Source: an uncultured Flavobacteriaceae bacterium
GTDB taxonomy: Bacteria; Bacteroidota; Bacteroidia; Flavobacteriales; Flavobacteriaceae
Assembly (NCBI GenBank): GCA_947494695.1
Contig: CANLWB010000018.1
Location: 5,265 to 69,264, forward strand
Length of the DNA stretch: 64,000 nucleotides
Direction: 5' to 3'
Under the pieces are notes generated by a model. It saw only the letters and a list, made by a program, of their open reading frames with translations, made no database searches and was not told the origin of the DNA. A program made the translations under genes and the position numbers. Shown here one piece after another: positions 42,832 through 64,000 of the stretch. Each line of letters starts with the position of its first letter. The stretch's first letter is position 1.

Positions 42832-42857
42832 GAAAAAGAAAATTAATACATTTTAAA

Positions 42858-42889: not shown

Positions 42890-43003
42890 AAAACAATTTT
42901 TTCTTACTTTAATGTTGAAATTTCGTAAAAAATCGATTAAATGGTTTTTTTGTTCGACAAAATGCATTATGTTTGTGTTGATAATGAATTAATAACCGTA
43001 CTA

Positions 43004-46000
43004 ATGTTTATGAGAGTATTAACAATTCGTTTTTTAGTTTTATTTACTTTTTTGGTTGGTGGAGTGCATGCGCAATCTCCTAATATTATTGTTATTATAG
43101 CAGATGATATGGGGTGGTCGCAAGTCAGTACCGGATTAACAAACCTTAATAATTCCAGTGATTTTTTTGAAACTCCGGTTCTTGAAACATTAGCAAGTGA
43201 AGGTATTGCTTTTCCATATGGATACGTCAATGGATCAAATTGTGCGCCTACCAGGGCGGCACTTCTAAGCGGACAGTATGCATCGCGCCCAACAAACAAT
43301 ATTTTTGCAGTGGATAATTTGAATAGAGGAGGGAATTCAACATTATTGGTAGGCCCAGACAACGGCCTGCCTAATGGTAAAGATGAACTTCCTAAGGAGG
43401 CCGTTACTTTGGCTGAAACCATGCAAACTGCAGGATATAAAACCGTGCATTTAGGGAAATATCATGTGGGAGAAGATGAGGCTACGAACGTTTCAGATAA
43501 TGCTGCTACAGATCAGGGATTCGATATAAATTTTGGAGGAGGCACCAAGGGAAATCCGGGTAATTATTTCGCTTCAAACAGCGGCGCTCCATATACATTT
43601 GGAGCCAGCATTGGTCCTGAGCTGGACGCTTATGCAGAGCCATATACAGCAGCAGAATCCCTATTGTTGGCGGGAGATAATTCACTAGAAGGCACAGCAA
43701 AACATGTTACAGATGCTATGGCAGACGCCGCTATGGACTTTATCGATGATAATATTAACAGCCCATTTTTTATGCATTTTAGCAATTTTGCAATACATGG
43801 TCCCTTTAATCCAAGTGATGCCAGACCAGATTTAAGAGCTAAATATAATGCTAAAGCTATTAGCAATCCCAGTGCTATGGGACATGATAGAAAACCCGGA
43901 CAAGCAGCACTGGCTGAGGGGATGGATCAAACTATTGGTCGATTAATAACCTATTTAAAAACAACGAATGATCCAAGAAATCCAGGCAAAATGCTATCTG
44001 AAAATACCCTGGTTTATTTTATATCCGATAATGGAGGAGCCGTGCATAGTGATGATGCTGGTCCATTAAGAGGTATGAAAGGAGAATGGTACGAAGGCGG
44101 TATCAGGTCTGTTAGCATCGTGTGGTCTGAAGCATCATGGCTAGCCAATAAAGAAACTGTGAATACAACACCTATAATAGGGTTTGACATCTATCCAACA
44201 TGCGTTGAAGCGGCCGGAGGAACCTTGCCGGGAGGAGGTTATGAGATTGATGGTGCAAGTCATTGGCAAATGTTAACCAATGGAACACCTCTAACCAGAT
44301 CGGCACTATATTGGCATTATCCCGGATACCTTATAGATTCTAACAGAGATGCCAGACCAGTATCCATTATTAGAAAAGGAGATTACAAATTAATATATAA
44401 CTATGAGACCGAGTCGTACGAGTTGTATGATCTTATTAACGATATAGGTGAAGCAACTAATTTATTGGGAGGGAGTCCGGATTCGGCTACTTTAATAATT
44501 GGTAACGACATGAGTACAGATTTACGAAATCATCTCGTCAATATATCGGCACCGTTACCAACATATAGATCAAATGGAGAAACCGTGTCTTTGCCTTATA
44601 TTATAAGTACGTCTGGAGGTGAACCAAATTCAACAGATGGATGTCAGGCTGTTAGTGGATATGAAGCGTATTGGGATTTCGATTCTGTAAGCGATGCCAA
44701 TGATGCCTCTGGCAACGGAAACGACCCAAATCCTGTAAATGGCACATTGAGCTATGACAGTTTAGATTTTAAAGAAGGCGATCAGTCCGTGGTATTCGAT
44801 GGCAGCGTGGATATAAATTATAGTAGTGCGACCTTTATGTCTCTGGCGATATCGGAGCGTTCGGTATCGGCATGGGTAAAGCCAACGGCATTAACAGGTA
44901 TACAGGATATATATGATGAAGGGGGAAATACGGTAGGTATTGCTATGCGATTAAATGGTTCCAATCTGGAATCTATTGTAAGAGAATCAACAACAATAAC
45001 AGATAACATAAGTGCTGGTTTTCCGTCGGATGGAGATTGGCATCACGTAGCGATGGTTTACGATGGTGCTAATACTAGCCACAAGCTTTATATCGATGGC
45101 CTTGAAGTCGCTTCAAGCAATTCAGCTCCAGCTTCGATCGGTTCCCATAATACTACCGGAGGAGGTATAGGTGGGGTTATTGGTAGTTGGGATAGCTTTG
45201 CCAACGACTCAGACGGTTATTTTATTGGAAAAATGGATGGATTTGCAGTGTATGAAACTGTTTTATCGGCCTCTCAGGTACTTGAAGCTGTTTGTATTGC
45301 AAATTCAGTAGAGGGTTGTCAACCGACAAGCGGCTATGAGGCATTCTGGGATTTTGATCTCGCAAGTGATACCAATGATGCTTCTGGAAATGCTCATAAC
45401 CCCACATTAACGCCTTCTGGGGCAATAACCTTTGATGCTGTAGATTTTAAGGAAGGTGATCGTTCTGTAATTTTTAATGGAACAGAAGCTATTCAATACG
45501 CAACTAATTCTACATCACCTGATAGTTTTATGAATATTATCACGAATTCCAGAAGTGTTATGGCATGGATTAAACCAACAGCTTTAACAGGAATTCAGAA
45601 TATTTTTGATGAAGGTGGACAGAATAGAGGTATAGCCATTAGGTTAAATAATACTAATTTAGAGGCTGTTGTAAGAGAAACCTCAAGTGTGGCAGATCAG
45701 ATAAGTGCCTCATTTCCAAATGATGGGGATTGGCATCATATAGCTTTTATATATAATGCTGCAAGTTCCGTTCAAAAGTTGTATATTAACGGCGCAGAAG
45801 TTGCAACCAGTGGTAGTGCACCGGCATCGGTAATCAGCCACTATAGTTATGGGGGAATTGGGGGAAAATTAAGCGGAAACGATAGTTTTCAGAATTCATC
45901 AGATGCATATTTTACAGGAAAAATGGATGCTTTTGTAGTATATGATGACCTGGTGTTATCTCCAACTCAAATAACAAATTCTGCGTGCTCAGGAACCTTA

Positions 46001-46255
46001 GGAATAAAAGATGCAGATATCCATAAAATATCTGTGTTTCCTAATCCGTTTGAAGATCATTTAAAGGTTAAAATCAATGGAGATGCGAACCACGTTGATG
46101 TAACATTATTTGATATATTGGGAAGACAAATATTAACTCAAAAATATAATAAACGCATATTAAATATTTCATTAGAGAATTTAGATAGGGGTAAATATCT
46201 ACTGCAAGTTAAAGCAAACAAAGAGCTTAGGATATTTAAAGTTTTTAAAAAATAG
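43004..46255 (+). CDS. Cys-type sulfatase fused to 2 LamG modules and a T9SS C-terminal domain (tandem paralog of 38431..42831)
   Basis: The ORF is open from 42941, but the Met at 43004 or 43010 gives a signal peptide (MFMRVLTIRFLVLFTFLVGGVHAQ). It has the same IIVIIADDMGW and C-A-P-T-R motifs, and the N-terminal roughly 540 aa are near-colinear with sulfatase-1. Two LamG modules follow. The tail is VFPNPFEDHLKV...GKYLLQVKANKELRIFKVFKK. Confidence 0.85.
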   Translation: MFMRVLTIRFLVLFTFLVGGVHAQSPNIIVIIADDMGWSQVSTGLTNLNNSSDFFETPVLETLASEGIAFPYGYVNGSNCAPTRAALLSGQYASRPTNNIFAVDNLNRGGNSTLLVGPDNGLPNGKDELPKEAVTLAETMQTAGYKTVHLGKYHVGEDEATNVSDNAATDQGFDINFGGGTKGNPGNYFASNSGAPYTFGASIGPELDAYAEPYTAAESLLLAGDNSLEGTAKHVTDAMADAAMDFIDDNINSPFFMHFSNFAIHGPFNPSDARPDLRAKYNAKAISNPSAMGHDRKPGQAALAEGMDQTIGRLITYLKTTNDPRNPGKMLSENTLVYFISDNGGAVHSDDAGPLRGMKGEWYEGGIRSVSIVWSEASWLANKETVNTTPIIGFDIYPTCVEAAGGTLPGGGYEIDGASHWQMLTNGTPLTRSALYWHYPGYLIDSNRDARPVSIIRKGDYKLIYNYETESYELYDLINDIGEATNLLGGSPDSATLIIGNDMSTDLRNHLVNISAPLPTYRSNGETVSLPYIISTSGGEPNSTDGCQAVSGYEAYWDFDSVSDANDASGNGNDPNPVNGTLSYDSLDFKEGDQSVVFDGSVDINYSSATFMSLAISERSVSAWVKPTALTGIQDIYDEGGNTVGIAMRLNGSNLESIVRESTTITDNISAGFPSDGDWHHVAMVYDGANTSHKLYIDGLEVASSNSAPASIGSHNTTGGGIGGVIGSWDSFANDSDGYFIGKMDGFAVYETVLSASQVLEAVCIANSVEGCQPTSGYEAFWDFDLASDTNDASGNAHNPTLTPSGAITFDAVDFKEGDRSVIFNGTEAIQYATNSTSPDSFMNIITNSRSVMAWIKPTALTGIQNIFDEGGQNRGIAIRLNNTNLEAVVRETSSVADQISASFPNDGDWHHIAFIYNAASSVQKLYINGAEVATSGSAPASVISHYSYGGIGGKLSGNDSFQNSSDAYFTGKMDAFVVYDDLVLSPTQITNSACSGTLGIKDADIHKISVFPNPFEDHLKVKINGDANHVDVTLFDILGRQILTQKYNKRILNISLENLDRGKYLLQVKANKELRIFKVFKK

Positions 46256-50551: not shown

Positions 50552-50634
50552 TTTTGGGTTTCTAAATTAAAATAACATGAACCTTGTTTAAGGTTTTGAA
50601 GTGCTACTTCGAGCTTGGCTCTATTAATAGACTT

Positions 50635-50687
50635 ACAACCATAAAAATAGCGAGATTATTGAATAATCTCGCTATTTTTATGGTTGT
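50635..50687. repeat. 53-bp perfect palindrome downstream of nrdA
   Basis: The 26-nt arm ACAACCATAAAAATAGCGAGATTATT is followed by G and then the exact reverse complement of the arm. Confidence 0.85.
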
Positions 50688-50902
50688 AGTCCATGGTCTT
50701 ATCGTAATTTGATTTATTAAATTAATAAAGGAAAAGAGAAACCCTAAATACGACCTTATTCTATAACTATAATTTGGGGTTACCTGAACTTTTAGAACCT
50801 TTAATGCTCTTTTAGTTCCAAAGAGATTCCTATTGGGACATTTCCGAATGACTCATTATGGGATACAGTGAAAGGGGGCTTGGGGTAATGATAGCGGTTT
50901 GT

Positions 50903-50939
50903 TTCAAACAAAAAACCCAAGATATAAATCCTGGGTTTT
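50903..50939 (-). terminator. intrinsic terminator downstream of the tRNA 3' fragment
   Basis: The minus strand reads AAAACCCAGG-ATTTATATC-TTGGGTTTT followed by TTGTTTG. Confidence 0.6.
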
Positions 50940-50945
50940 CCTTCG

Positions 50946-50988
50946 TAGCGAGAACGAGATTTGAACTCGTGACCTCCGGGTTATGAAT
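50946..50988 (-). pseudogene. 3' half of a tRNA-Met(CAU) gene (anticodon loop to discriminator base), probable att site of the adjacent integrative element
   Basis: The minus strand reads TTCATAA-CCCGG-AGGTC-ACGAG-TTCAAAT-CTCGT-TCTCGCT-A. These segments are the anticodon loop, 3' anticodon stem, variable loop, T-arm, 3' acceptor strand and discriminator. Neither the complementary 5' anticodon stem (CCGGG) nor the 5' acceptor strand (AGCGAGA) is present upstream. Confidence 0.75.
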
Positions 50989-51160: not shown

Positions 51161-52363
51161 ATGTCATCAATAAGCCCATTTTTAGACAAGAGACCTAACT
51201 CAAAAAAATTGCATCCTATAACTATAAGAATAATAAAGGATAGAAAACCTTCATACATATATTTAGGGCAAGCTGTTAAATTGAATCAATGGGATTCTAA
51301 AAATCGTCGTGTAAAGAATTCTCACCCTGATTATTTAGAAATAAACCAACTCATAATTTCCAAATTGTCTAAAGCAAATAAAAGCTTACTAAATGCTGAA
51401 ATCAAGGAAGAAAATTTATCATCCAAAAGTATAAAGCGAAAAATGATTTCGAAGGAAGAGGGGGATTTCTTTAATATTTCTAAACTTTACTTAAGGAGTA
51501 TTGAAGATAGAAAACAATTTCATCAATATGATATAGCATATCATCGTATTAAAGTTTTTAAAGTGTATGTAAAAAAAGATAAACTTTATTTTAATGAATT
51601 GACTGTAGATCTTTTAAAACTTTTTGAAAATTATTTACTAAATAAAAGAAATCTAAAACCTAGAACCGTAGCAAATTATATGATAACTGTTCGTACTATT
51701 TTTAACTTGGCTATATCTAAATTCGAGACTAATATTCAATTTTATCCATTCGGAAAGGGGAAATACCAAATTCGATTTCCAGAAACAAGAAAGATAGGTT
51801 TGAATATAGATGAAGTTATGATTTTAGAGATTATAAAAGGAATTACAGTGGCACAACAGTATGCTTTAAATGCTTGGTTAATTAGTTTCTATTTTGCAGG
51901 AATAAGAGTTAGCGATGTTCTTAAATTAAAATGGATAGATTTTTTAGATAATAGATTAAACTATAGAATGGGAAAGAATAGTAAATTAGTTTCACTTAAA
52001 GTTCCTGGGGAAGTTGTGAGTATTCTAAAAGGACTTGAAAGTAATGAGGATTCAATATATTTATTTAAAGAATTGGAAGGCGTCAATTTAAATGATAATA
52101 AACGATTACGAACTAGAATAAAGACAGCAACAAGGAATTTTAATAGAAGGTTAGAAATAGTAGCTGCAAAAGCAGGTATTGATAAAAAGCTAAGTATGCA
52201 TATTGCAAGACATAGTTTTGGTAATATTTCTGGTGATAAAATCCCAATACAAATACTTCAAAAACTATACAGACATTCTTCCGTGACAACTACAATTTTA
52301 TATCAGTCGAATTTTGTGAAAAAGGATACAGATGAGGCATTAGAAAAAGTTATTAATTTCTGA
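51161..52363 (+). CDS. int: site-specific tyrosine recombinase / integrase (Bacteroidota type with N-terminal arm-binding domain)
   Basis: 400 aa. The C-terminal catalytic region has ARHSFG ... LYRHSSVTTTILY (R/H/R/Y pattern). It sits about 175 bp from the tRNA fragment. Confidence 0.88.
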   Translation: MSSISPFLDKRPNSKKLHPITIRIIKDRKPSYIYLGQAVKLNQWDSKNRRVKNSHPDYLEINQLIISKLSKANKSLLNAEIKEENLSSKSIKRKMISKEEGDFFNISKLYLRSIEDRKQFHQYDIAYHRIKVFKVYVKKDKLYFNELTVDLLKLFENYLLNKRNLKPRTVANYMITVRTIFNLAISKFETNIQFYPFGKGKYQIRFPETRKIGLNIDEVMILEIIKGITVAQQYALNAWLISFYFAGIRVSDVLKLKWIDFLDNRLNYRMGKNSKLVSLKVPGEVVSILKGLESNEDSIYLFKELEGVNLNDNKRLRTRIKTATRNFNRRLEIVAAKAGIDKKLSMHIARHSFGNISGDKIPIQILQKLYRHSSVTTTILYQSNFVKKDTDEALEKVINF

Positions 52364-53821: not shown

Positions 53822-54961
53822 GTGAAAAAAATTAAGTTTGGAATTTTAATTTTCTTATCCGTTATACTTTTGATGGAAATAACATTAAGATTAATAGCCT
53901 ATAACCAATTAAGAAAGCACAAAGCAATTAACTATACAAAAGATATTGATCTGGGATATACATATACACCTGGATCGGAAGATTATTTTATAAATGCAGC
54001 ATTTAAAAATAAGTATAAAATTAATAGTTCTGGATTTAATTGGGACGAATTTAAAGTAAAGAAATCACCTGGAATATTTAGAGTGCTTTTATTAGGAAGT
54101 TCTAATGATTCAGGTATTTATTCTGATGGTTCTAATAGTTATGCTAGACTATTGCAAAGAAAATTTCAAGAAAATGGAGATAAAATAGAAATAATGAATT
54201 TTTCGGTTGATGGGATGTATAGAACAATAAGAGAATTAAACTTTGCTTATAAATGTGCTGTAAAGTATAATCCTGATTTAATCTTAATTAATGCACACAT
54301 GCCAATTGTTGATGTTCCTAAGTTCATGATAACATATAAAGGCGTTAAAATTGTATCTCAGAATTACGATGAACCTTTGAAAGATACTCAGTGTTTTATT
54401 GACAACGTAATAGACAACCCTCCTTTGATATCATATATTTATGATATATCATATATGTTTAGAAGTGTCTGTAAATTTTGTAGAGATAGACCAGGTCACC
54501 CAGTAACAAAATTTTTTGAAAAAAGTATATTAAAAAATAAGCGTATTATTAGAATTATTTCAGGAAGAAATATAATGAATGGTAGAATCGAAGAAAGTTT
54601 AATTAAAAAGTATGATGAAAGAGAATCTTTAGATATTTATTTGAAGACTGCTGATTCTTTAGCAAAATTAAAAACGAAACTTGTTTTATTTAATAAGTAT
54701 TTTTCCCATAATAATAGTATAAAACTTAAACCTTATTTTAAAAATTATTTAGGTTTGAATTTAGAATATAACCCTGAACATAATTATGGAAAGCTAGATG
54801 GGCATTTTTCTCAAAAAGGACATAAGGCTATAGCTAAATTATTTTATGAAAAATTTTTCACTGAAAAATTAATACCTCAAAATTACTTTTCAAATAAAAC
54901 CAAAGACCAAATGAAACTTCTTTTAGAAAAAAAGACAACTAAAGACTATAGAAATTGGTGA
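53822..54961 (+). CDS. N-terminally membrane-anchored SGNH/GDSL-like hydrolase or acyltransferase (DltD/AlgX-like architecture)
   Basis: 379 aa with a GTG start and one N-terminal TM. Block I is like FRVLLLGSSNDSG and the C-terminal block is like LDGHFSQKGHKAIA (D-x-x-H). Confidence 0.55.
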   Translation: MKKIKFGILIFLSVILLMEITLRLIAYNQLRKHKAINYTKDIDLGYTYTPGSEDYFINAAFKNKYKINSSGFNWDEFKVKKSPGIFRVLLLGSSNDSGIYSDGSNSYARLLQRKFQENGDKIEIMNFSVDGMYRTIRELNFAYKCAVKYNPDLILINAHMPIVDVPKFMITYKGVKIVSQNYDEPLKDTQCFIDNVIDNPPLISYIYDISYMFRSVCKFCRDRPGHPVTKFFEKSILKNKRIIRIISGRNIMNGRIEESLIKKYDERESLDIYLKTADSLAKLKTKLVLFNKYFSHNNSIKLKPYFKNYLGLNLEYNPEHNYGKLDGHFSQKGHKAIAKLFYEKFFTEKLIPQNYFSNKTKDQMKLLLEKKTTKDYRNW

Positions 54962-55406
54962 AAACTATTTAAATCATTGAAAAAATCCCATCTCCAACAG
55001 AATATTTTATATTAAATGAGGTTATAGAATTAGATGAAAATTTTCTTGTAAAGATTCATATTCTTTTGATTTAGATTCTCTAGAAATAGTATTATACTCT
55101 TTAGAAGTTATGACATAGGTCAAGTTCTAAACTTCTGAATGATCTTTATAGAAGGAGGCATTGCCTAACACGCTTTTTCATTGAACAGTGTACTTTCAAG
55201 AGTAGTGATTTTATGAGTATCACCCATGTTTCTGCTAAATATATTTTTTAATAAATTTCCTACAGTATTAAATTTTAACATAGACTTTAACATAAAATCA
55301 TCCTTGAAAATTTTATTTATGAAAGATTATTTTTATACTTGTTGTGAGGCTTTAATGCTAATTAGTGTTGTGACTCAAATGGCGGAGCTATGTTTTAAAT
55401 GCATAG

Positions 55407-55426
55407 TCTCTCTCTCTCTCTCTCTC
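55407..55426. repeat. (TC)10 dinucleotide microsatellite about 80 nt upstream of the UpxY-like gene
   Basis: The sequence reads TCTCTCTCTCTCTCTCTCTC directly. Confidence 0.95.
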
Positions 55427-55504
55427 TTCTTTTTTCGTCAACGAGATTTATAAATTAATTGAATCTAGAAAATTTACTTATTGTACCATTTAAATTAGTT
55501 TACT

Positions 55505-56026
55505 GTGAATAAGCCCCCCCCAAAAAAATTTAGAGTAGGTTGGTATGTATTATATACTAAATCTAATTATGAAAAAAAAGTTTATACTTTATTGAAAAAT
55601 CGATTTGATGTTTTTCTGCCTATGTCCAAAATAGAGAAACAGTGGAGCGATAGAAAAAAAACTCTAGAAAAACCATTATTTAAGTCATATATTTTTATTC
55701 ATTTAGAAAATGAGAAAGACAGAATAGATGTTTTGAAGGCAGAAGGAGTATATAATTATGTAAGTATAAAAGGAAAACCAGGCATGGTTACAAGTAAAGA
55801 AATAAATATAATAAAACTTTTTATTGGCGAATTATCAGATGTTCAATTGGTTCCTTTTGAAATTTGTATTGGTCAAAAGAAAAGAATTAATTTTGGACCC
55901 TTTTCTGGTTATGATTGTTATATTATTGACTATGATGGTAAAGAAAAAGTTATAGTTCGCATAGATTCCTTAAAAAGTTGTATTAGCGCTGAGATAAATA
56001 AAGCACATTTAGCTGAACTTTGTTAA
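55505..56026 (+). CDS. UpxY family (NusG-like) transcription antiterminator
   Basis: 173 aa with an NGN domain (WYVLYTKSNYEKKVYTLL ... EKQWSDRKKTLEKPLFKSYIFIH) and a KOW-like C-terminus. The only start candidate is a GTG. Confidence 0.85.
   Translation: MNKPPPKKFRVGWYVLYTKSNYEKKVYTLLKNRFDVFLPMSKIEKQWSDRKKTLEKPLFKSYIFIHLENEKDRIDVLKAEGVYNYVSIKGKPGMVTSKEINIIKLFIGELSDVQLVPFEICIGQKKRINFGPFSGYDCYIIDYDGKEKVIVRIDSLKSCISAEINKAHLAELC
55514..55528 (+). repeat. C8 followed by A7 homopolymer tract in codons 4-8 of the UpxY-like ORF
   Basis: The sequence is GTG AAT AAG CCC CCC CCA AAA AAA TTT. A run of eight C is conspicuous in this AT-rich region. Confidence 0.95.
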
Positions 56027-56094
56027 ATAAAGTGATTTTGTCTGCCTTAAAAAAGCAATAATGATTAATAGATTATATTCTAAATAGAATAAAA

Positions 56095-58527
56095 ATGATA
56101 TCAAATTATCTTAAAACCTCTTTTCGTAATCTTAAAAAAAGATTACCATTTACTTTGGTTAATATTATAGGACTCAGTATAGGTCTGTCTTGTTTTTTAC
56201 TTTTAATTGCTTATACTAATTATGAAGAAAAGTATGATGGTTTTCAAGAGAATAAAGGACAATTGTATAGAGTGATTTTTGAAAGATATCAGGGAGAAGA
56301 ACTAAAATCGGCATCTCCAGCAGTAATGCCACCGCTTGGTTATAAAATTAAAGAAGAAATATCAGAAGTAAAGCAAGTGTCCCGATTTTCAAATGGTTCG
56401 GGTATTGTGAAAAATGAGCATATTACAGCTAAAGAAGGAAAGCTTTTTTATGCAGACTCAGATTTTTTTTACATGTTTTCTTTTCCTCTGATATTAGGAA
56501 ATCCAGATACAGTATTAAAGAATCCAAATTCAATTGTTTTAACAGAGTCAACAGCCTCTAAATATTTCGGAAAACAGGAAGCAATAGGAAAAGAGTTAGA
56601 AGTTGCCAATAAATTTGGGACAACAAAGTATAATGTAACAGGAATAGTGAAAAATCTTCCTTTAAATACAAGTTTTAATTTTGATTTTTTATGCTCTTTT
56701 AATTCTATTCATAGGGGTGAAAAGTGGTTTGAAAACAATTGGATGTGGTGGTCGTTTCAAACTTTTGTGTCTATTTCAAACAATACTGATTTAGAAAGTG
56801 TTAAAAGACAATTTCCAGCTTTTATTGAAAAATACAAAACAAACCCAATGGAAGCAAATATTACTTGGAAGTTTAATTTTCAGCCTATCCAAGATATACA
56901 TTTAAAATCAGATTTCAGAGGAGAATCTATAAGAAGAGACACTAAAGCAAGAACATTAAATTTACTTAAAATTATAGCTTTATTGATTTTATTAATTTCA
57001 TGGGTGAATTATATTAACTTATCAACTGCAAGTTCTACAGAAAGAGCTAAAGAAATTGGAATACGTAAGTCTATTGGAGCCTATAGAAATCAAATTTCAA
57101 AACAATTTTTAATAGAAGCTAGTTTGGTAAATAGTATCGCAGCAATTCTTGCCATAGTTATCGTTTTCTTGACAATAAAACCTTTTAGTAATCTTTTAGG
57201 GTTGAATTACAGTATAGAAATTTTAATGCAACCCACTTTCTGGATGTATTTGTTACCAATAATTATTATTGGAATTATAGTTTCAGGAGGATATCCTGCA
57301 TTTGTATTGGCATCTTTTAAGTCCATAGATGTATTAAAAACACGAATGGTAAGCACCCCAAGTAGTACTTTGCTTAGAAAAATCCTTGTAGGCGTTCAAT
57401 TTGTAATTTCAATTTTGCTGATAACTTGTACATGTATCATGATTCATCAGAACAACTTTATGAAAAATAGAGATTTAGGAGTGGATATCAATGATTTAAT
57501 TGTTATAAAGAAACCTCAACTTATAAAAAAAGAAATGTATGAATCACGTCTCAATAGTTTCATAAAAGAGTTGGAAAATGCAACAAAAGTAAAATATACT
57601 TCTGCTAGTTTTGGATTGCCTTCGGTTGGTAGTTGGAGCTTGGCTGTGTGGAAAAGTTCGGAAGATTCAGAAAATCAGCAAGTTCATACTATAAATGGGG
57701 TAGATGCTAATTATATTCCAGCTTATAATCTTAAGTTGCTTGCAGGGCGCAATTTTGAAGAAAATAGAATATCCGATAAAAATGCTGTTATTGTTTCAAA
57801 AAAATCATTAAAAACACTTGGTTTAGATAAACCAAATGATGCTATTGATGTAACATTAAAAATAGAAACCTTTGAAGATAATAGGCTTTTTAATATAATA
57901 GGCGTTATTGATGATTATCATCATAATTCATTACATACACAAATAGAAGAAATGATTCTTATTCCCAACACGGGGTTGTTTAGTTCTCCAAGATATTTTT
58001 CTTTGAAGTTAGATACTAGTAAATTATTAAAAAATACAATAAAGGAATCAAATACAATTTATAAAAAATTTTTCCCTGATGATATTTTTGAATATTTTAT
58101 ATTGAAAGATGAATTTCAATTACAATATGAAGAGGAAGACAGGAATCAAAGTGTATTTACGATTTTTTCGTTTTTGGCAATTTTTCTAGCTTGTATTGGA
58201 ATTTTAGGGCTCTCATCATTTATTGCCTTTCTGAAGACACCAGGGATTGCTATTCGTAAGGTATTTGGAGCAGATAAATCAACTATACTTTGGGTGTTAT
58301 CTAAAGAGTTTTTGTATGTTTTAATTGGAGCAAGTTGTGTGGCAATTCCAATTGTTATTTATTTTATGAAAGATTGGTTAGCAGGTTTTCCTTATCGAAT
58401 AGAAATTAGTTTTTGGCACTTTGCTATAGCTATTCTTTCAATATTCTTAATAACCTTTATAATTATAGTATTTAATTTATATAAATCTCTAAGAAGAAAG
58501 CCTATAGAAACGTTGAGAGCAGAATAA
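56095..58527 (+). CDS. MacB-type ABC transporter permease (two FtsX domains, MacB periplasmic core domains)
   Basis: 810 aa. The N-terminus (FRNLKKRLPFTLVNIIGLSIGLSCFLLLIAY) is typical of Bacteroidota FtsX-family permeases. Two 4-TM FtsX modules are separated by large extracytoplasmic domains. Confidence 0.85.
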   Translation: MISNYLKTSFRNLKKRLPFTLVNIIGLSIGLSCFLLLIAYTNYEEKYDGFQENKGQLYRVIFERYQGEELKSASPAVMPPLGYKIKEEISEVKQVSRFSNGSGIVKNEHITAKEGKLFYADSDFFYMFSFPLILGNPDTVLKNPNSIVLTESTASKYFGKQEAIGKELEVANKFGTTKYNVTGIVKNLPLNTSFNFDFLCSFNSIHRGEKWFENNWMWWSFQTFVSISNNTDLESVKRQFPAFIEKYKTNPMEANITWKFNFQPIQDIHLKSDFRGESIRRDTKARTLNLLKIIALLILLISWVNYINLSTASSTERAKEIGIRKSIGAYRNQISKQFLIEASLVNSIAAILAIVIVFLTIKPFSNLLGLNYSIEILMQPTFWMYLLPIIIIGIIVSGGYPAFVLASFKSIDVLKTRMVSTPSSTLLRKILVGVQFVISILLITCTCIMIHQNNFMKNRDLGVDINDLIVIKKPQLIKKEMYESRLNSFIKELENATKVKYTSASFGLPSVGSWSLAVWKSSEDSENQQVHTINGVDANYIPAYNLKLLAGRNFEENRISDKNAVIVSKKSLKTLGLDKPNDAIDVTLKIETFEDNRLFNIIGVIDDYHHNSLHTQIEEMILIPNTGLFSSPRYFSLKLDTSKLLKNTIKESNTIYKKFFPDDIFEYFILKDEFQLQYEEEDRNQSVFTIFSFLAIFLACIGILGLSSFIAFLKTPGIAIRKVFGADKSTILWVLSKEFLYVLIGASCVAIPIVIYFMKDWLAGFPYRIEISFWHFAIAILSIFLITFIIIVFNLYKSLRRKPIETLRAE

Positions 58528-58599
58528 GTAATTTTATGTAAATTATTATACACTCTTTTATAGAAAACAAATATGATAAGTAGTATTAAAATATGAGCT

Positions 58600-59283
58600 A
58601 TGATAAAAATAGAAAACCTTTCGAAAGTATTCAGGTCAGTAGATATGGAAACAACTGCAATTAATAATTTAACTTTAGAAGTAAATGCTGGTAGTTTTAT
58701 TGCTATTATGGGCCCTTCAGGATGTGGGAAATCTACTTTACTTAATATCCTTGGATTGCTTGACAATCCAAGTTCAGGAACTTACAATTTTGGTAGTCAG
58801 GAAGTATCTAAGTTTACAGAAAAACAATTGACGACTTTGCGTAAAGGAGGAGTTGGGTTTATTTTTCAAAATTTTAATTTGATAGACGAATTAACCGTTT
58901 TTGAAAATGTAGCATTGCCTTTAGAATATCTTAAAGTTTCAAAAAGTGATAGAAAAAAACGAGTAGATGATGTATTAAAACGTATTGGGATTGATCATAG
59001 AGCGGATCATTTTCCTCGGCAGTTATCTGGTGGGCAACAACAAAGAGTTGCTGTTGCACGAGCAATTGCATTCAAACCTAAATTTATTTTGGCAGATGAG
59101 CCTACAGGTAATTTAGATTCCAAAAATGGCAGAGAAGTTATGGAGTTACTTTCTGAATTGAATAAAGAAGGAGTGACTATTATTATGGTAACTCACTCTA
59201 AAAGAGATGCTAAGTATGCCAACAGAAAGATATTTTTGCATGATGGTCAAATAGTAGAAAAATTAATTGAGGAAGATGTTTAA
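58600..59283 (+). CDS. ABC transporter ATP-binding protein (MacB/LolD-like)
   Basis: 227 aa with Walker [10 protein letters not shown], signature LSGGQQQR and Walker [12 protein letters not shown]. Confidence 0.9.
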
Positions 59284-59379
59284 AAGAATCTCAATTTTAT
59301 AATAAATGATAGCGTTATAGAAGCTTACCATGAAGAGGGAATATGTGTTAAATCAGATTTCTATTCTATATTTGGAGTT

Positions 59380-60168
59380 TTGACCGTTCCTGAAATTAAG
59401 AAAACAGGAATGGATAGGCCTTTATTGGTATTAGTCCCAGCAGTAAGTGGTACTAGAATTGGACCTCAAAGAATATTTGTTGAAATTGCTAGAGAAGCTG
59501 CTGAACTTGGATATTTTAGTTTTAGAATGGATATGAATCGTGCAGGTGATTCACTTGAAGATTCTGAAGTAATTATAAATACTTCAGAAAATCCATTAAC
59601 CTCATGGTATAGTAATTATTTGGATGAAGTCACTGATTTTTTTAGTAAAGAACCTTATGTCTTTAAGAGTTATTTATTATTAAGCATTTCATTAGGATGC
59701 GAACCAATTTTAAGATATGCAATAAAGAAGTCTTATGATTCGGTGATATTTCTTTCTCCAACCTATTTAGATTATGTGAATATCACTAATGTTAATAAAA
59801 AAAATCTAAAAGCCTATTTGTATAAAATTTTTAAGAAACAGACCTGGGTGAAATTACTGCACTTTGATTTGAATTGGAAAAAAATAGTTAGAAATGTAAT
59901 CCCTAAAAAGCAGGCAATTAAAAAAGAAACACCCTCTCAATTGATTGTTAATGGACCTATTGAAGTATACAGTATCTATGGTGAATTAGATAAAGAATTT
60001 ACAGATTCAAATAACTATTGGAATAAATTGGTAGATGAAGGGGGGCTATCTTCGTTTACCTATAAGATGATTAAAGGCTCAGACCATAATTTTTTTGGAT
60101 ATCAGTTTAAAAAAGATGTTAAGTCTATTCTAAAAGAGTGGCTATTTGGATTTGAATGGAGAAATTAA
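59380..60168 (+). CDS. alpha/beta-fold protein resembling exosortase-A-system-associated hydrolase 1 (start uncertain)
   Basis: The block GPQRIFVEIAREAAELGYFSFRMDMNRAGDS resembles, from memory, the hydr1_PEP-type N-terminal block. No canonical GxSxG is present (SISLGCE at the expected elbow). The same frame stays open and looks coding back to 59284, with no ATG, GTG or TTG upstream of 59380. Confidence 0.55.
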   Translation: MTVPEIKKTGMDRPLLVLVPAVSGTRIGPQRIFVEIAREAAELGYFSFRMDMNRAGDSLEDSEVIINTSENPLTSWYSNYLDEVTDFFSKEPYVFKSYLLLSISLGCEPILRYAIKKSYDSVIFLSPTYLDYVNITNVNKKNLKAYLYKIFKKQTWVKLLHFDLNWKKIVRNVIPKKQAIKKETPSQLIVNGPIEVYSIYGELDKEFTDSNNYWNKLVDEGGLSSFTYKMIKGSDHNFFGYQFKKDVKSILKEWLFGFEWRN

Positions 60169-60947
60169 TTTTTAAAACTTTTGAGAATCCTAAAAGGGAA
60201 ACGAATATCTGTTTACATATTCACTACCCTATACAATCAAACGAGAAAGCATTTCTTTTTTTGAACCCATTGTTTGATGAGAAAAAACGATCACAAAAAT
60301 TTCAAACGAATACTGCTCGCGCCTTAGCTGATATAGGTTATACAGTAGTTCGATTTGATTATTATGGAACGGGAGATAGCTATGGAGATTTGAAAGAATT
60401 AACTATAAGCACTTGTTTAGAAAGTAGTAAACAAATTTTGGAGTTCATTCATACTGAGTTCGGAATTAATAGTGTTTCAATTTTAGGGATACGGTTTGGA
60501 GCAAGTTTAGCATTAGAATTAGCATCAAAATGCAACGAGATAGGAGGTGTTTTTTTGATAGATCCTATTGCTTTAGGAAAAAGATATCTTACAGAGCTTC
60601 GATTACGTAGAAAGGCTTTTTTTATGGTGAATAACATGAAAAATACAGACGATAAAGTAATTATCAATGGAAAAAAATATGAAGATCATCAAGGGTATTT
60701 AATAAGTGTTTCATTAACTGAAGAATTGGAGAACTTAAATATATTTCAAAATAAACTAAGTGAAAAAAGTGTTTTTCTCTTTTCGTTAGATGTGTTGAAT
60801 TATAAAAAATTATTAAAACTAAAAGAGGATTTGAATGCATCCAATAACAAAATTAAATTAATAAAAGACAAGACACCATCATTTTGGGATACTATGGAAA
60901 TGATAAAAACTGAATCACTGACATCTGAAATTTTGAAATATGTTTAA
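60156..60947 (+). CDS. alpha/beta-fold protein resembling exosortase-A-system-associated hydrolase 2
   Basis: 263 aa, overlapping the previous gene by 13 nt. The block FLFLNPLFDEKKRSQKFQTNTARALADIGYTVVRFDYYGTGDSYGD resembles, from memory, the hydr2_PEP pattern. The nucleophile elbow reads GIRFG, with Arg where Ser is expected. Confidence 0.55.
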   Translation: MEKLIFKTFENPKRETNICLHIHYPIQSNEKAFLFLNPLFDEKKRSQKFQTNTARALADIGYTVVRFDYYGTGDSYGDLKELTISTCLESSKQILEFIHTEFGINSVSILGIRFGASLALELASKCNEIGGVFLIDPIALGKRYLTELRLRRKAFFMVNNMKNTDDKVIINGKKYEDHQGYLISVSLTEELENLNIFQNKLSEKSVFLFSLDVLNYKKLLKLKEDLNASNNKIKLIKDKTPSFWDTMEMIKTESLTSEILKYV

Positions 60948-61254
60948 TCTTTTTAAAAAGAAAATAAAAAAGAAAAGTGAAAAGAATACTGTTTTTGTAG
61001 TTTCTACTTTAGATACTGTAAAAAGGCTAATTTCTGATGTCATTGAAGATATAGATCAAAATACGATTCAACCAGAAGTTGAATTAGAAAATTTAGGTTT
61101 AGACTCTATAAAATTTCTGAATATTTTGCTGGCCTTCGAAAATGTATTAGAAATAGATTTAGAATATATGGTTGAAAAAATAGACCTTTCAACTATACAG
61201 ACCGTTCAGGATATTGTTAATCTTATTGAAGAACTTAGAATAAGTAAAGTTTAG
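60940..61254 (+). CDS. acyl/peptidyl carrier protein
   Basis: 104 aa, overlapping the previous gene by 8 nt. It has a phosphopantetheine-attachment-like motif (LENLGLDSIKFLNILLAFE) and a four-helix-sized acidic protein body. Confidence 0.7.
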   Translation: MFNLFKKKIKKKSEKNTVFVVSTLDTVKRLISDVIEDIDQNTIQPEVELENLGLDSIKFLNILLAFENVLEIDLEYMVEKIDLSTIQTVQDIVNLIEELRISKV

Positions 61255-61638
61255 ACGAGATATCATATTTATAAAAACTAAAGAACAATTTAAAATCTAT
61301 TATTTTTTGATGATAATTAAACTATCGAAAGCATGTTTGTCTTCTTTTCTGTAGATGCATATAAGTTCATTAAAGGTATTGGACGCTTTATTTAAGAAAT
61401 AATAAAGTTGGTATTAATTATTTTTCTTAAAGGAGACTAAATACTCCAAGTGTAGATAACTAAAATCAATATAATAGGTATATTGTATTACTTTTATAAA
61501 AATAATAATTTATTACTAAAATAGTTTTGATTTTACTAAGAACGAATTATTTTTGGGTGTGATGTCTAAGTTGTAGGATTTAATTATTGAAAGCATGAAT
61601 AACGAAGCTCAATATTGTAAAAAAACAAAATATAACGA

Positions 61639-62760
61639 ATGAAAATTTACCTAAACTTATTTTACTTATTAGCAGTTTTGCTATTTACTTTCCCGCGTAT
61701 AACAAGCGCGCAAATCATTTCTAAAGAACCTAAGGATTTGTTCATCACAGGGAATGAATCGATAATATTTACTTCCAAAATAAATAACAAAGAATATAAG
61801 ATATTTGTACAGTTACCTAAAAACTATCAAACTAATTCAAAACAAAAATATCCTGTTTTTTATACTCTTGATGGTCAAGATACATTTGCAATGGTGTCTT
61901 CAATCTATAATAGTATTAGGTTTGATGGTTATGTTCCTGGAATCATTATCATTGGAATTTCTTATGGAGGAGAAAAATCTAGTTTTGGCTCATTAAGAAT
62001 ATCAGATCTCACACCTACACTACTTGATGATTATGCAAATTCAGGTGGAGCTCCAGAATTTCAGAAAGTGTTAAGTGATGAACTAATACCAATGGTTGAT
62101 TCTCTTTATAGAACAGATAAAACAAACCGAGCATTAGCTGGGACTTCTTTTGGAGGATTGTTTACTCATTATACTCTTTTTACACAGCCTAAGTTGTTTA
62201 ATGGTTATATAATAACTAACCCAAGTTTTGGATGGGGTGATAATTATGTTTATAAACTTGAAGAGAGTTTTGCAGAAAGTAATTTGAGTATAAATGCAAA
62301 AGTAATGTTTGTAAGTGGTGAGTATGATATGGTATCAGATGTAACTAAGATGGTTAATCAGATAAAAAAACATCAATATAAAAACCTAGCACTTAATTTC
62401 GAGGTATTAAAAGAAATGGGGCATTCGGGAAGTGATGCTGAATCATTTTCGCACGGATTTAATTTTATTTATAAGAGACCAATTGTGATACTGCCTGAAA
62501 TAGAATTAATGAAATACCTCGGAACATACAAATCACCAGAAGGAGAGATTGTTGATATCATTATTAAGGATGGAGAGTTAATGCTGACAAATGATAATGG
62601 TATTAGTGGGACTATGATTCATGCTTTAAGCAATTCCGATTTTACTTTTAACGGAAAATATTTTGACTTTCATTTCATTAAAAATAAAGATGGAAATATA
62701 AATGGTTTCTTTCTACAGTATAGTTTAAAAGGCTCATTTACTGCTGAAAAAATTAAATAA
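61639..62760 (+). CDS. secreted esterase, alpha/beta hydrolase (putative-esterase / IroE-like family)
   Basis: 373 aa with a signal peptide. It has the YPVFYTLDGQ block and the nucleophile elbow GTSFGG, with His in MGHSG. An extra C-terminal beta domain is present. Confidence 0.7.
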   Translation: MKIYLNLFYLLAVLLFTFPRITSAQIISKEPKDLFITGNESIIFTSKINNKEYKIFVQLPKNYQTNSKQKYPVFYTLDGQDTFAMVSSIYNSIRFDGYVPGIIIIGISYGGEKSSFGSLRISDLTPTLLDDYANSGGAPEFQKVLSDELIPMVDSLYRTDKTNRALAGTSFGGLFTHYTLFTQPKLFNGYIITNPSFGWGDNYVYKLEESFAESNLSINAKVMFVSGEYDMVSDVTKMVNQIKKHQYKNLALNFEVLKEMGHSGSDAESFSHGFNFIYKRPIVILPEIELMKYLGTYKSPEGEIVDIIIKDGELMLTNDNGISGTMIHALSNSDFTFNGKYFDFHFIKNKDGNINGFFLQYSLKGSFTAEKIK

Positions 62761-63191
62761 GTAAAAGTAATAAGTTGTATTCACGACTTGATTAGTTTTA
62801 GTATTATAAGTAAATTTTCTAGGAAATAGATACCAATAACTTTTTTGGAATACTATATAAACAATAAAAAAACAGATTTACTATTAGGGAATATTTTGAA
62901 AATATTTCTTTTTTTAAGAATAGAATAAGAAAGAACATAAACTTTCTATTTGTACAATTTGCTATCAATAGTGAAGTATGTACAGATACAATTCAACTGG
63001 AAATATTGTTAGAAAATTTGATATCTGATTTTACAAGGTTTTTTTGAACATTTTATTGCTTTTGAAGATGTTTTAGAGGTATAGGTTTGGAAAATGTAAT
63101 CGAAGAAATAGCTCTTTCTATAAACAGTTTAAATTCAAAATATTATTAAGCTTGTAAATCAACTGAAAGCAAATTATATCAAGTAGGTTTT

Positions 63192-64000
63192 ATGAGAAAT
63201 CATTTATATATAAAATACCAAGAACTAAAAAAAAACACCTCTAATAAAGTAATATACTTTGAACAAAATGAGAGAATAGAAAAGGATTTTGCTTCTTTTT
63301 CTGATGATATTGATAAGGATATAAAGATATTAAAGGCGTTAGAGGAGCAAAAGAAAGGAATAAAACGAGTTGGTATATTGGGAACTACGTCATACAGATG
63401 GATGACTTTAGATCATGCTTGCATAAAAGGGGGGTATAAATCTGCAGGACTTCCTGAGACTTTGAATATAGAAGCTCTCGATAAAATCATCAAAGATCTT
63501 AATATTGATTTAGTGTTAGTTGATTTTAAGTTGAAAGAGAAATATGAGAAACTTGACTGTATTCATATTTATTATTTCAATTGTACGAAGTTGGTAGTTA
63601 ATGATATTGAGGCAATTAATGTTCAGAAACAAATAATCTCAGAAGAAAATCTGATCCAAGAAGACTATAGTATTGTTTTTTCGTCGGGTACGTCTGAAAA
63701 TATTAAATATATCAATAGGAGGTTCTTTGAATTCAAAAAACAAAAAACATCATTTTTAAAAAAAGTAAAGGAGTATTGGTGGTTTAGAGGGTCGATTTGG
63801 TATATCATTAAAAATAAAAGTAAAAATAAATTAATTATTTATCTTCCCTTTTCTCATCCTATGCAAAGATGGTTTGTTCAGATAGCTATTAATAATAAAT
63901 TAGATATTGTATTATCAGACCCTAAGAATTGTATCAAACATATTATGATTGAAAAACCCAACATTATGGTGTCAATTCCTCCTATATATGATGCCATGGC
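63192..64000 (+). CDS. AMP-dependent synthetase/ligase-like protein, 3' end beyond the window
   Basis: This ORF is not in the supplied track because it has no stop. I translated 63192 to the window end by hand and found no stop codon. Its blocks are like those of long-chain acyl-CoA ligases: ILGTTSYRWMTLDHACIKGGYKSAGLP, then SIVFSSGTSENIKYI at the position of TSGTTGxPKG, then IIYLPFSHPMQRW. Confidence 0.6.
   Translation, partial: MRNHLYIKYQELKKNTSNKVIYFEQNERIEKDFASFSDDIDKDIKILKALEEQKKGIKRVGILGTTSYRWMTLDHACIKGGYKSAGLPETLNIEALDKIIKDLNIDLVLVDFKLKEKYEKLDCIHIYYFNCTKLVVNDIEAINVQKQIISEENLIQEDYSIVFSSGTSENIKYINRRFFEFKKQKTSFLKKVKEYWWFRGSIWYIIKNKSKNKLIIYLPFSHPMQRWFVQIAINNKLDIVLSDPKNCIKHIMIEKPNIMVSIPPIYDAM

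Follow-up and report, generated by a model that had tools for sequence, protein, structure and literature searches.

We consider it rather likely that the segment from 55.4 to 64.0 kb of the DNA analysed here (the window: 64,000 nucleotides from an uncultured Flavobacteriaceae bacterium), probably together with the upstream gene orf379, constitutes the 5' portion of an uncharacterised Flavobacterium NRPS operon gained by horizontal transfer, the product of which is probably a fatty-acylated peptide. Because the window ends inside the ligase gene, the NRPS itself is placed by synteny with related loci. Two features of the cluster are notable: a capsule-type antiterminator appears to head and drive an orphan NRPS operon, and there is a pair of unstudied alpha/beta-fold proteins, one of which is catalytically dead. 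An earlier note on this DNA had described a co-directional, tightly packed gene string; all of its ORFs were found where it placed them, with exact overlaps of 13 nucleotides between the two alpha/beta-fold genes (hydr1L and hydr2L) and 8 nucleotides between hydr2L and the carrier protein gene. The T9SS context that it noted is borne out by T9SS cargo proteins (Por_Secre_tail) upstream of the string.

The synteny is extensive. In blastn comparisons, window positions 55529-61348 (5.8 kb) are collinear with positions 5410-11207 of the F. daejeonense locus (L007) at 78% DNA identity, and 63009-64000 match 10929-11908 of that locus at 73%. The F. daejeonense order continues with the ligase, an Amidohydro_2 protein and an NRPS that runs past the end of the locus and can be read for more than 2,300 codons. 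F. undicola continues likewise (an NRPS of 2761 aa with the architecture FAAL-T-C-A-T-C-A...), as do Snuella (four NRPS genes), a Flavipsychrobacter MAG, Puia and two loci of one Bacteroidales MAG, and also L088 and L089 (NRPSs of 4827 and 4274 aa). Amidohydro_2 follows the ligase in all nine related loci that show the ligase, and an NRPS comes next except in one at a contig end. These NRPS genes begin with a fatty-acyl-AMP-ligase (FAAL) domain in a FAAL-T loading module, and several of the NRPSs terminate in a C domain. Within Bacteroidota, the hydr1L/hydr2L pair and the genes for the ligase, ACP and Amidohydro_2 show strict co-conservation. Among the 80 best genome loci, hydr1 lies beside hydr2 in 68, NRPS modules are found at most 10 kb away in 40, and XrtA EPS markers are present in 16; the markers and the modules never occur together, with the Bacteroidota loci falling on the NRPS side. 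The self-contained cassette of the earlier note is thus not what the related Bacteroidota loci display, as they continue into multimodular NRPS genes. A characterised pathway (flexirubin, aryl polyene) as the downstream part is rejected, since what lies downstream is, by synteny, an orphan NRPS cluster.

The first operon gene (55505..56026; + strand, as are all the operon genes below) encodes a UpxY-family NusG paralog, a processive antiterminator, which matches PF02357 and exceeds the cutoff of NF033644 (126 bits against 100), confirming the earlier identification. Orthologs with 68-69% identity are likewise the first gene in L001, L002 and L007. In the leader, which also contains a (TC)10 microsatellite, an ops-like element ATGGCGGAGCTAT with the core GCG-N-AGC lies 126 nt 5' of the upxY start (55379..55391, + strand). 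The three orthologous clusters that were fetched (F. undicola, F. daejeonense and Snuella) each contain the sequence GTGGCGSAGCTAT exactly once, 112-189 nt 5' of upxY, in leaders that are otherwise unalignable. The core architecture is shared with opsA CCGCGTAGCGCA and opsE CTGCGAAGCATA of B. fragilis, and UpxY is otherwise a hallmark of capsule operons (PMC11685472). We regard the element as a candidate site at which the polymerase pauses and UpxY is recruited. As in the Bacteroides capsular polysaccharide operons, the long operon opens with the gene for a specialised NusG paralog, which presumably serves that same operon; however, the cargo here is an NRPS operon rather than a capsule locus, upxY is not followed by a UpxZ-like gene, and a search 5' of the ops-like site for a conserved RNA pause hairpin gave none. 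In having a secondary-metabolite cluster as cargo the system resembles LoaP of the Bacillus velezensis polyketide clusters, but the window protein belongs to the UpxY family and scores only 50.9 bits against the LoaP cutoff of 125.

Next in the string are an 810-aa permease of the type VII ABC exporter class (56095..58527), whose two MacB_PCD and two FtsX stretches agree with the MacB-type two-FtsX exporter recognised earlier, and its partner ABC ATPase (58600..59283). The permease has a 78% identical ortholog in the same position in F. daejeonense and the ATPase an 85% identical one in that locus. F. undicola shows a clean deletion of the exporter that left a 3' remnant of the ATPase gene behind, which argues that the exporter is ancestral to the operon. 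The closest known counterparts are MacB-type exporters tied to peptide clusters, an example being the darobactin exporter DarB/DarD, which likewise couples a duplicated MacB_PCD/FtsX permease to a separate ATPase inside a peptide biosynthetic operon. The DarD model is the best match of the window ATPase; however, the window proteins do not reach the equivalog cutoffs (154 against 700, and 280.6 against 375 bits for the ATPase), and the window operon has no membrane-fusion or outer-membrane partner.

The pair follows. For hydr1L (262 aa), TIGR03100 (hydr1_PEP) is the sole NCBIfam match (38.6 bits against a cutoff of 168, E 7e-10), and for hydr2L (263 aa; 60156..60947) TIGR03101 (hydr2_PEP) is the best (101 bits against 202.75, E 7e-29). 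Both are far below cutoff and are therefore remote relatives rather than members of these families; the homology proposed earlier stands to that extent. Scores below cutoff were one half of what the note said would refute it; the other half, matches to generic hydrolases only, does not apply, since their matches are not limited to these. Alignments show Ser, acid and His all present in hydr1L (elbow S-I-S-x-G-C, GE.D and GSDHxFFG), making it the predicted catalytic partner; hydr1 proteins have Cys or Ser plus His, with Ser in the Bacteroidota proteins and Cys in those relatives that were aligned from XrtA loci and from NRPS-terminal loci. In hydr2L the nucleophile is replaced by Arg113 (G-I-R-F-G-A), the His position is occupied by F-W244 and the acid is unconserved. 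Arg was found at the nucleophile position in all 85 hydr2 relatives examined, and in a PDB profile alignment GLSMGG of TTL lipase faces GiRlGA of hydr2L. Judged by these residues, hydr2L is a catalytically dead pseudo-hydrolase. The predicted models have pLDDT values of 74 (hydr1L, an alpha/beta-hydrolase fold) and 94 (hydr2L, TM 0.76 to 7q4j).

The start of hydr1L is unusual: the gene spans 59287..60168 with its conserved N-terminus, but the first 27 codons of this, although in frame, contain no ATG, GTG or TTG, and the only canonical starts are 59380 (TTG; ORF 59380-60168) and 59410 (ATG). F. daejeonense likewise has no canonical start at the conserved N-terminus, and over 22 start-less codons about 7 of the 13 codon differences between the two are synonymous, suggesting that this stretch is translated.

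In four distant relatives hydr2 is fused directly behind the last NRPS carrier domain, as C-A-T-hydr2 by Pfam in L046 and L055 and as equal-size ORFs ending in hydr2 in L023 and L063; in L046, L055 and L063 the hydr1 gene comes directly after the fusion. This location, the alpha/beta-hydrolase fold and the Ser or Cys plus His of hydr1 recall the NRPS release and transfer enzymes (PF00975 type I/II thioesterases, SyrC/CmaE-type aminoacyl transferases and the fungal trans-acting DcsB and GrgF), and the last two are among the fold matches (TM 0.65-0.69). The pair differs from them in being a two-component unit in which Ser, Asp and His have gone from the carrier-proximal hydr2, in the absence of any PF00975 match, and in that the solved structures nearest to it are lipases of the Hydrolase_4 type and feruloyl esterases. 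Nor was a PF00975-type thioesterase found in the Bacteroidota-type NRPS loci as far as these are visible; their NRPS genes run past the locus ends, and a terminal thioesterase domain may lie further on.

A free-standing 104-aa acyl/peptidyl carrier protein (60940..61254; PF00550, 27.9 bits; LGLDSIKF) has orthologs directly 3' of hydr2L in seven loci (L001, L002, L007, L009, L012, L088 and L089). The ANL-superfamily adenylating ligase (63192..64000; PF00501), of which the first 269 codons precede the window end, has a variant P-loop (SSGTSxNIK) and is 69-70% identical to full-length orthologs of 548-551 aa that retain motifs A5, A7, A8 and A10. Between the two genes, a 1.66-kb insert (61349-63008) holds a secreted esterase with a signal peptide (61639..62760; PF00756, 77 bits; DUF3471; GTSFGG), flanked on both sides by duplicated operon sequence. 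The left copy of this ~280-bp duplication is formed by a 5' fragment of the ligase gene (61255..61348), and the longer blastn match extends about 108 nt into the F. daejeonense ligase gene. On the right, direct repeats, alignment and blastn identify the 3' part of a second, decayed ACP copy (63009..63191), with stop codons and a lost Ser motif, which directly adjoins the start of the ligase gene, the position held by the intact ACP in relatives. No esterase homolog was found in 90 loci. Although present as the earlier note described, the esterase is by this arrangement a lineage-specific passenger and later insertion that did not belong to the ancestral string.

At the level of sequence, transcription starts 5' of the ops-like site and upxY is the operon's own first gene; we propose that UpxY would load on RNA polymerase at that site and confer termination resistance across more than 20 kb. 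The stand-alone ligase would adenylate a carboxylic acid and load it on the 104-aa carrier protein, and the Amidohydro_2 enzyme just past the window may modify that unit. hydr1L and hydr2L would together form a unit of two proteins that works on thioesters bound to carriers, with hydr2L as a non-catalytic carrier-binding partner and hydr1L accepting the acyl or peptidyl group and passing it to water or another acceptor, thereby filling the transfer or release role held elsewhere by a thioesterase domain. By synteny, a FAAL-primed multimodular NRPS would lie beyond the window end, and the MacB-type pump, by homology part of the ancestral operon, may export the product or protect the producer.

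The fusions at the end of the assembly line bear directly on another possible, though improbable, account, in which an unusual acyl or amino-acyl unit is assembled by ligase, ACP and Amidohydro_2 and then moved by hydr1L/hydr2L off the free ACP onto a carrier domain of the NRPS in the manner of SyrC/CmaE, with no release of the final product. The C-A-T-hydr2 order places the pair at the end rather than the start, the NRPS has its own FAAL-T loading module, and the Bacteroidota hydr1L carries Ser. Thioester-to-thioester transferases, CmaE and SyrC among them, typically have a Cys nucleophile, and the presence of one in the hydr1 relatives aligned from other loci favors such a shuttle, as do the strict co-conservation of the supply genes with the pair and the terminal C domains, which could take a carrier-bound unit.

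The proposal of the earlier note, a free-standing divergent exosortase-A-type cassette without an NRPS that would serve to acylate a surface polysaccharide or to produce a small acylated molecule, appears decidedly unlikely to us. The window does share with the XrtA/PEP-CTERM cassette (TIGR03100, TIGR03101, ACP, the ligase_PEP_1 TIGR03098 and the dCO2ase_PEP1 TIGR03099) adjacent hydr1 and hydr2 homologs near an AMP-forming ligase and a small carrier protein, as well as, in the relatives examined, the Arg of hydr2. The NCBIfam matches of the pair, the capsule association of UpxY, a Bac_transf priming glycosyltransferase 1 kb 5' of upxY in F. daejeonense, and the glycosyltransferases, MurJ-like flippase and SGNH-like orf379 family accompanying the pair in L059/L089 also speak for it. 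However, all four curated models fail: the pair has low scores; the ligase is unrelated to TIGR03098, as this model is neither among the 6 NCBIfam matches of the window fragment nor among the 25 best of the full-length F. daejeonense ortholog; and the expected PLP decarboxylase was not found in the window or the related loci, where Amidohydro_2 stands in its place. Moreover, the gene order is reversed (hydr1, then hydr2), hydr1L has Ser for the Cys of the aligned relatives, and the surroundings are an NRPS operon that includes UpxY and a MacB pump, not an XrtA EPS locus, with NRPS and XrtA mutually exclusive across the 80 loci. The note had seen no exosortase in the window, and indeed no XrtA-type marker was found there or in any Bacteroidota-type locus. 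The Rhodanobacteraceae pair lies in XrtA EPS loci, and in the two of these that were inspected the scanned ORFs include neither a carrier protein nor a ligase, a point against the role that we propose for the pair. The note's broader guess, an acylated small molecule made and exported or acylation of a surface polymer, is compatible with the data.

Very unlikely, in our assessment, is that the window copy is a decaying, non-functional cluster. The insertion with its decayed ACP and ligase fragments, together with the lack of a canonical hydr1L start, implies that the operon might be impaired, and the leader microsatellite points the same way; but the visible ORFs are intact, 60-85% identical to orthologs and free of frameshifts, terminator prediction for the + strand gave no intrinsic terminator over the length of the insert, and the start-less N-terminus is shared with F. 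daejeonense and shows signs of translation.

The tRNA-integrated island claimed earlier is supported by low GC and an adjoining integrase; however, ARAGORN and Rfam found no intact tRNA in the window. There is instead a tRNA-like 3' fragment (50941..50988, - strand), read directly from the sequence, with part of the anticodon arm, the variable loop, the T-arm ACGAG-TTCAAAT-CTCGT (aligning to positions 45-66 of a 76-nt tRNA) and the acceptor 3' strand. A terminator hairpin follows it (~50905-50935). At the fragment GC falls sharply from 0.37 to 0.25, and 170 nt after it comes a tyrosine recombinase/integrase (51161..52363, + strand; Arm-DNA-bind_5, Phage_int_SAM_5 and Phage_integrase). The fragment is a probable att remnant marking the left island edge. 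Further in, orf379 (53822..54961, + strand) encodes an N-terminal membrane anchor and an SGNH-like domain (FRxxxxGSS ... DGH) of a family present in neither Pfam nor NCBIfam. It is absent in the closest relatives (L001, L007 and L086) and has homologs in four unrelated pair-containing loci (L059, L011, L089 and L090); by this distribution it is a recurrent accessory gene of clusters with the alpha/beta pair.

The ORF list for the window reproduced exactly the gene string, with its coordinates and overlaps, that the earlier note had read from 55505-64000. The string opens with a UpxY-like protein (55505-56026; 126 bits against NF033644, cutoff 100), which is followed by an 810-aa permease (56095-58527) with two MacB_PCD and two FtsX stretches in a library scan, an ABC ATPase (58600-59283), the 262-aa alpha/beta-fold protein hydr1L (59380-60168), the 263-aa alpha/beta-fold protein hydr2L (60156-60947, with a 13-nt overlap with the hydr1L gene) and a 104-aa carrier protein (60940-61254; PF00550, motif LGLDSI, 8-nt overlap with the hydr2L gene). 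Beyond these lie a 373-aa signal-peptide esterase (61639-62760; PF00756) and an AMP-binding ORF (PF00501), the ligase, which begins at 63192 and runs off the window end at 64000. The MacB periplasmic core, the FtsX domains and the ABC ATPase of a MacB-type exporter are all encoded in the window, while the ORFs between 51 and 64 kb yielded neither a membrane-fusion protein nor a TolC-like gene.

The window stops at 64000 within the ligase, and the downstream content was judged from related loci. Collinearity with Flavobacterium daejeonense DSM 17708 extends over window 55529-61348, where the DNA is 78% identical, and over 63009-64000 (73%); the gene order in that species is UpxY, MacB permease (78% amino acid identity), ATPase (85%), hydr1L, hydr2L, ACP, ligase, Amidohydro_2 and an NRPS of which more than 2,300 codons are visible before it continues beyond the locus end. 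The same cluster is present in F. undicola, with a 2761-aa NRPS of the architecture FAAL (AMP-binding + DIP2-like)-T-C-A-T-C-A..., where FAAL is a fatty-acyl-AMP-ligase domain priming the NRPS. Further along, Snuella sedimenti encodes four NRPS genes, and a Flavipsychrobacter MAG three NRPS genes together with a glycosyltransferase, a GNAT and a PPTase. The core of ACP, ligase, Amidohydro_2 and FAAL-NRPS is common to Puia, a Bacteroidales MAG (two loci, one ending with its contig inside Amidohydro_2) and two further metagenomic loci with NRPSs of 4827 and 4274 aa. In all, condensation, adenylation and thiolation modules are reported for nine related loci, counting the one that is cut inside Amidohydro_2. 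As the related loci continue from the ligase into Amidohydro_2 and NRPS genes, the gene string probably forms the front end of an NRPS operon. Judged by sequence comparison, this operon would be an orphan one, primed by a FAAL, with an ancestral MacB-type pump and predicted UpxY/ops-type control. In F. undicola the exporter has been cleanly deleted: an ATPase 3' remnant persists between upxY and hydr1L (8900-9143 of that locus), which indicates that this species lost the pump by a clean deletion corresponding to window 56163-59050.

Other pathways were weighed for the string. Neither flexirubin nor aryl polyene nor capsule O-acylation fits, since the related loci show NRPS modules directly downstream and not the genes of those pathways. 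A siderophore system, with a Fes-like PF00756 esterase, an exporter and an NRPS, was set aside because the esterase proves to be a window-specific insertion lacking a homolog in any related locus. In the window copy REARRANGEMENTS is seen: a segment of the F. daejeonense locus (10929-11207) that spans the 3' end of the ACP gene and the opening 108 nt of the ligase gene has two matches in the window. This ~280 bp of ancestral ACP-ligase junction is duplicated on both flanks of a 1.66-kb insert carrying the secreted PF00756/DUF3471 esterase. The left copy retains an intact ACP with a ligase 5' stub (61255-61348), and the right copy an ACP remnant (63009-63191) that has decayed, showing stops and no Ser motif, next to the intact ligase. 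Given the duplication-flanked insert and the lack of an esterase homolog in any of 90 loci, we consider the esterase a passenger rather than a member of the cassette.

We then compared the string with the cassette found in exosortase A (XrtA)/PEP-CTERM loci, of which the earlier note had taken it to be a divergent version. The proposed homology of the two alpha/beta-fold proteins to hydr1_PEP and hydr2_PEP stands as kinship: TIGR03100 is the sole NCBIfam match of the 262-aa protein (38.6 bits, residues 21-59 only, cutoff 168.45) and TIGR03101 the top match of the 263-aa protein (101.2 bits across its whole length, E 6.6e-29, cutoff 202.75). It does not extend to membership, as both fall below the curated cutoffs. 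The ligase does not resemble TIGR03098, which is absent among the six matches of the window fragment and the best 25 of the 548-aa F. daejeonense ortholog; among the latter the top matches are of the MenE/FadD type, at ~80 bits. No PLP-dependent decarboxylase (TIGR03099) occurs in the window or, as far as their genes were called, in the related loci, where Amidohydro_2 (PF04909) is what comes after the ligase. Likewise, no exosortase-type marker was found in the window or the related NRPS loci described here, and the Bacteroidota-type loci have none of the XrtA markers for chain length, tyrosine kinase or export. Hence, by every curated measure the cassette lies outside the XrtA-type members, though the kinship is real. 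The pair inside an XrtA exopolysaccharide locus of Dyella itself scores under the TIGR cutoffs, at 88.6 and 81.2 bits. Since no ligase or ACP is found among the scanned ORFs of that locus, the tie of the pair to carrier proteins is not universal. A literature search on hydr1_PEP, hydr2_PEP, TIGR03100, TIGR03101 and exosortase with hydrolase 1/2 returned no functional study, the sole mention of TIGR03100 found being speculation only.

The wider hydr1 and hydr2 families throw more light on the pair. In hydr2L the motifs R66-F-D-Y-Y-G-T-G-D-S75 and G-I-R113-F-G are present, and an alignment of 29 hydr2 relatives has an invariant G-x-R-x-G (R113) in place of the G-x-S-x-G of alpha/beta-hydrolases; correspondingly, a profile alignment with the TTL lipase (7q4h) sets GLSMGG opposite GiRlGA. 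F-W244 stands where the His would be, and conservation is lacking at the acid position; the predicted structure of hydr2L is nonetheless a confident alpha/beta-hydrolase fold (pLDDT 94, TM 0.76 to 7q4j). Arg occupies the nucleophile-elbow position in 85/85 hydr2 loci, which were picked by the separate motif RFDYYGTGD and not by the Arg. Because Arg replaces Ser throughout and the His and acid positions are lost, hydr2 is a conserved pseudo-hydrolase. Its partner hydr1L keeps S-I-S-x-G-C, GE.D and GSDHxFFG, and in the alignment hydr1 relatives from other contexts show G-x-C-x-G and D-H, i.e., a Cys nucleophile. As type II thioesterases neither protein qualifies: PF00975 matches neither hydr1L, with its S-x-S-x-G, nor hydr2L, with its G-x-R-x-G. 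Sequence and fold searches of the PDB recovered no more than generic lipases (Hydrolase_4) and feruloyl esterases for the two, and nothing useful for the ligase and the Amidohydro_2 protein.

To place the pair in its genomic contexts we used the best 80 genome loci; hydr2 relatives as a whole were found at no fewer than, that is at least, 584 loci among the species-representative genomes scanned. A hydr1 gene stands beside hydr2 in 68 of the 80, as it does in the window. NRPS modules lie within 10 kb in 40/80 and XrtA-type exopolysaccharide markers in 16/80, these last coming from Rhodanobacteraceae and similar proteobacterial lineages; no locus (0/80) has both, and 24/80 have neither, including 15 whose locus is under 12 kb long. 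The hydrolase 1/hydrolase 2 pair of exosortase A loci belongs to a broad family, with about half of the nearest relatives at or in NRPS lines. Four loci (L023, L046, L055 and L063) carry ORFs of 1358-1402 aa that end in hydr2; the order C-A-T-hydr2 was confirmed by Pfam in L046 and L055, and a hydr1 gene directly follows the hydr2-ending ORF in L046, L055 and L063. As far as the Bacteroidota-type NRPS loci can be seen, they contain no PF00975 thioesterase. We infer, conjecturally, that the two proteins could form one unit for transfer or release, in which hydr2 docks close to the carrier and hydr1 does the catalysis; the main rival to such a unit is that the pair shuttles a precursor rather than transferring or releasing the product. 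The pair might, on the former reading, represent a thioesterase-independent release or transfer of NRPS products, and the conserved loss of the triad in one partner offers a testable idea for a long-unexplained pair.

A more specific, and in our estimate improbable, form of the transfer/release reading is that hydr1 and hydr2 constitute an unrecognised two-protein off-loading machine, with hydr2 on the carrier and hydr1 moving the chain to an acceptor other than water. Here the dead hydr2, with Arg for the nucleophile, would dock on the terminal carrier domain, to which it would sometimes be fused, and the Cys/Ser-His hydr1 would shift the acyl or peptidyl chain to, for example, a sugar or lipid-linked glycan. 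If true, this would account for the pair being shared by exopolysaccharide loci of the XrtA type and the ends of NRPS/PKS lines, for its company of glycosyltransferases, MurJ-like flippases and SGNH-like membrane proteins, and for a capsule-type UpxY/ops switch driving it in flavobacteria; such a cluster would make a peptide-glycoconjugate attached to the surface and not a free antibiotic.

A further gene that keeps company with the pair is the unannotated orf379 (53822-54961), whose product combines SGNH-like motifs (GSS ... DGH) with a membrane anchor at its N-terminus and falls in no library family. Its family, of ~350-380 aa, has homologs in four unrelated pair-containing clusters (L059 15961-17046; L011 19403-20479; L089 15042-16091, minus strand; L090 17398-18438), recurring in NRPS, PKS and glycosyltransferase clusters that bear the hydr1/hydr2 pair; it is probably an accessory gene. 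Two of these clusters, from Aquimarina pacifica (L059, 9923-19648) and L089 (8569-18366), combine the pair and NRPS with GT1 and GT4 glycosyltransferases, and also encode a MurJ-like flippase, a PPTase and the orf379 family, with an ABC-2 transporter in L059 only. This company hints that some products of the lines with the pair are glycosylated or surface-linked.

The UpxY-like protein is the first gene in four orthologous clusters, and their leaders (window, F. daejeonense, F. undicola and Snuella) share only one alignable element. It reads ATGGCGGAGCTAT in the window (55379-55391) and GTGGCGSAGCTAT in F. daejeonense (5268-5280 of its locus), F. undicola (8149-8161) and Snuella (231-243). The 13-mer, [A/G]TGGCG[G/C]AGCTAT, occurs once per locus, 112-189 nt upstream of upxY. 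The element resembles the ops of E. coli RfaH, GGCGGTAGnnTG. Its core GCG-N-AGC has the architecture seen in opsA (CCGCGTAGCGCA) and opsE (CTGCGAAGCATA) of Bacteroides fragilis, which are non-template hairpin sites recruiting UpxY proteins to paused RNA polymerase (PMC11685472). This ops-like element is a candidate UpxY recruitment site for an NRPS operon. No conserved RNA pause hairpin was found upstream of the site, the z-scores not being significant. UpxZ is not present as the second gene, a position held by the MacB-type permease in the window and F. daejeonense and by hydr1L in F. undicola and Snuella. In place of a polysaccharide operon, the cargo, as seen in the relatives, is NRPS genes. 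A UpxY-family factor heading an NRPS operon would be the functional analogue of LoaP; together with the ops-like site it would carry the Bacteroides capsule-operon mechanism into secondary metabolism, in parallel to LoaP in Bacillus. We found no paper describing UpxY combined with NRPS. Separately, the window copy alone has a (TC)10 dinucleotide microsatellite (55407-55427) between the ops-like element and the upxY start, which could act as a slipped-strand length switch.

The cluster itself is not surprising, as Flavobacterium often carries orphan NRPS clusters: 29 genus-specific NRPS families were described among 2,680 genomes surveyed, with most clusters sharing <60% of genes with known ones (PMC10734526). 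What draws interest instead is the antiterminator and the conserved pairing of a dead with a live alpha/beta-fold protein.

The hydr1L gene has a peculiar start. Its conserved N-terminal 27 codons follow in frame right after the ATPase stop (window 59284-59380; 9131-9273 of the F. daejeonense locus), and no ATG, GTG or TTG precedes the conserved N-terminus in either genome. The 22 start-less codons compared show 13 differences, ~7 of them synonymous. This dominance of synonymous differences suggests that the stretch may be translated, via a non-canonical start (ATA or ATT) or termination-reinitiation. The source genome annotation starts hydr1L at 59410 (252 aa).

Directly after the ribonucleotide reductase genes, at 51 kb, the GC content drops from ~0.37-0.40 to ~0.25-0.30. 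At the exact break, on the minus strand (50905-50988), lies a 48-nt tRNA-like 3' fragment with a terminator, and 170 nt from the fragment a tyrosine integrase. The fragment may derive from a CAU-anticodon tRNA or be a tmRNA-like end. The window contains no intact tRNA, and an intact copy, if any, must lie beyond it; the island is seen at its left border only, the right border falling outside the window. In F. daejeonense the cluster has another location, with a Bac_transf gene 1 kb upstream of it; PRTRC, SSB and DUF932 genes, a set typical of mobile elements, are its neighbours in the Flavipsychrobacter MAG, and IS elements in L088. Evidently, the cluster is mobile. Just past the ribonucleotide reductase genes, a perfect long palindrome (50633-50689) gave only microRNA-model matches, by chance, and is probably a bidirectional terminator. 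Elsewhere, window 27722-46255 encodes four secreted proteins of very large size (1104-1726 aa) that carry Laminin_G_3 domains; T9SS C-terminal sorting domains are found in three of them and N-terminal sulfatase domains in two. All four are core-genome neighbours, unrelated to the island.
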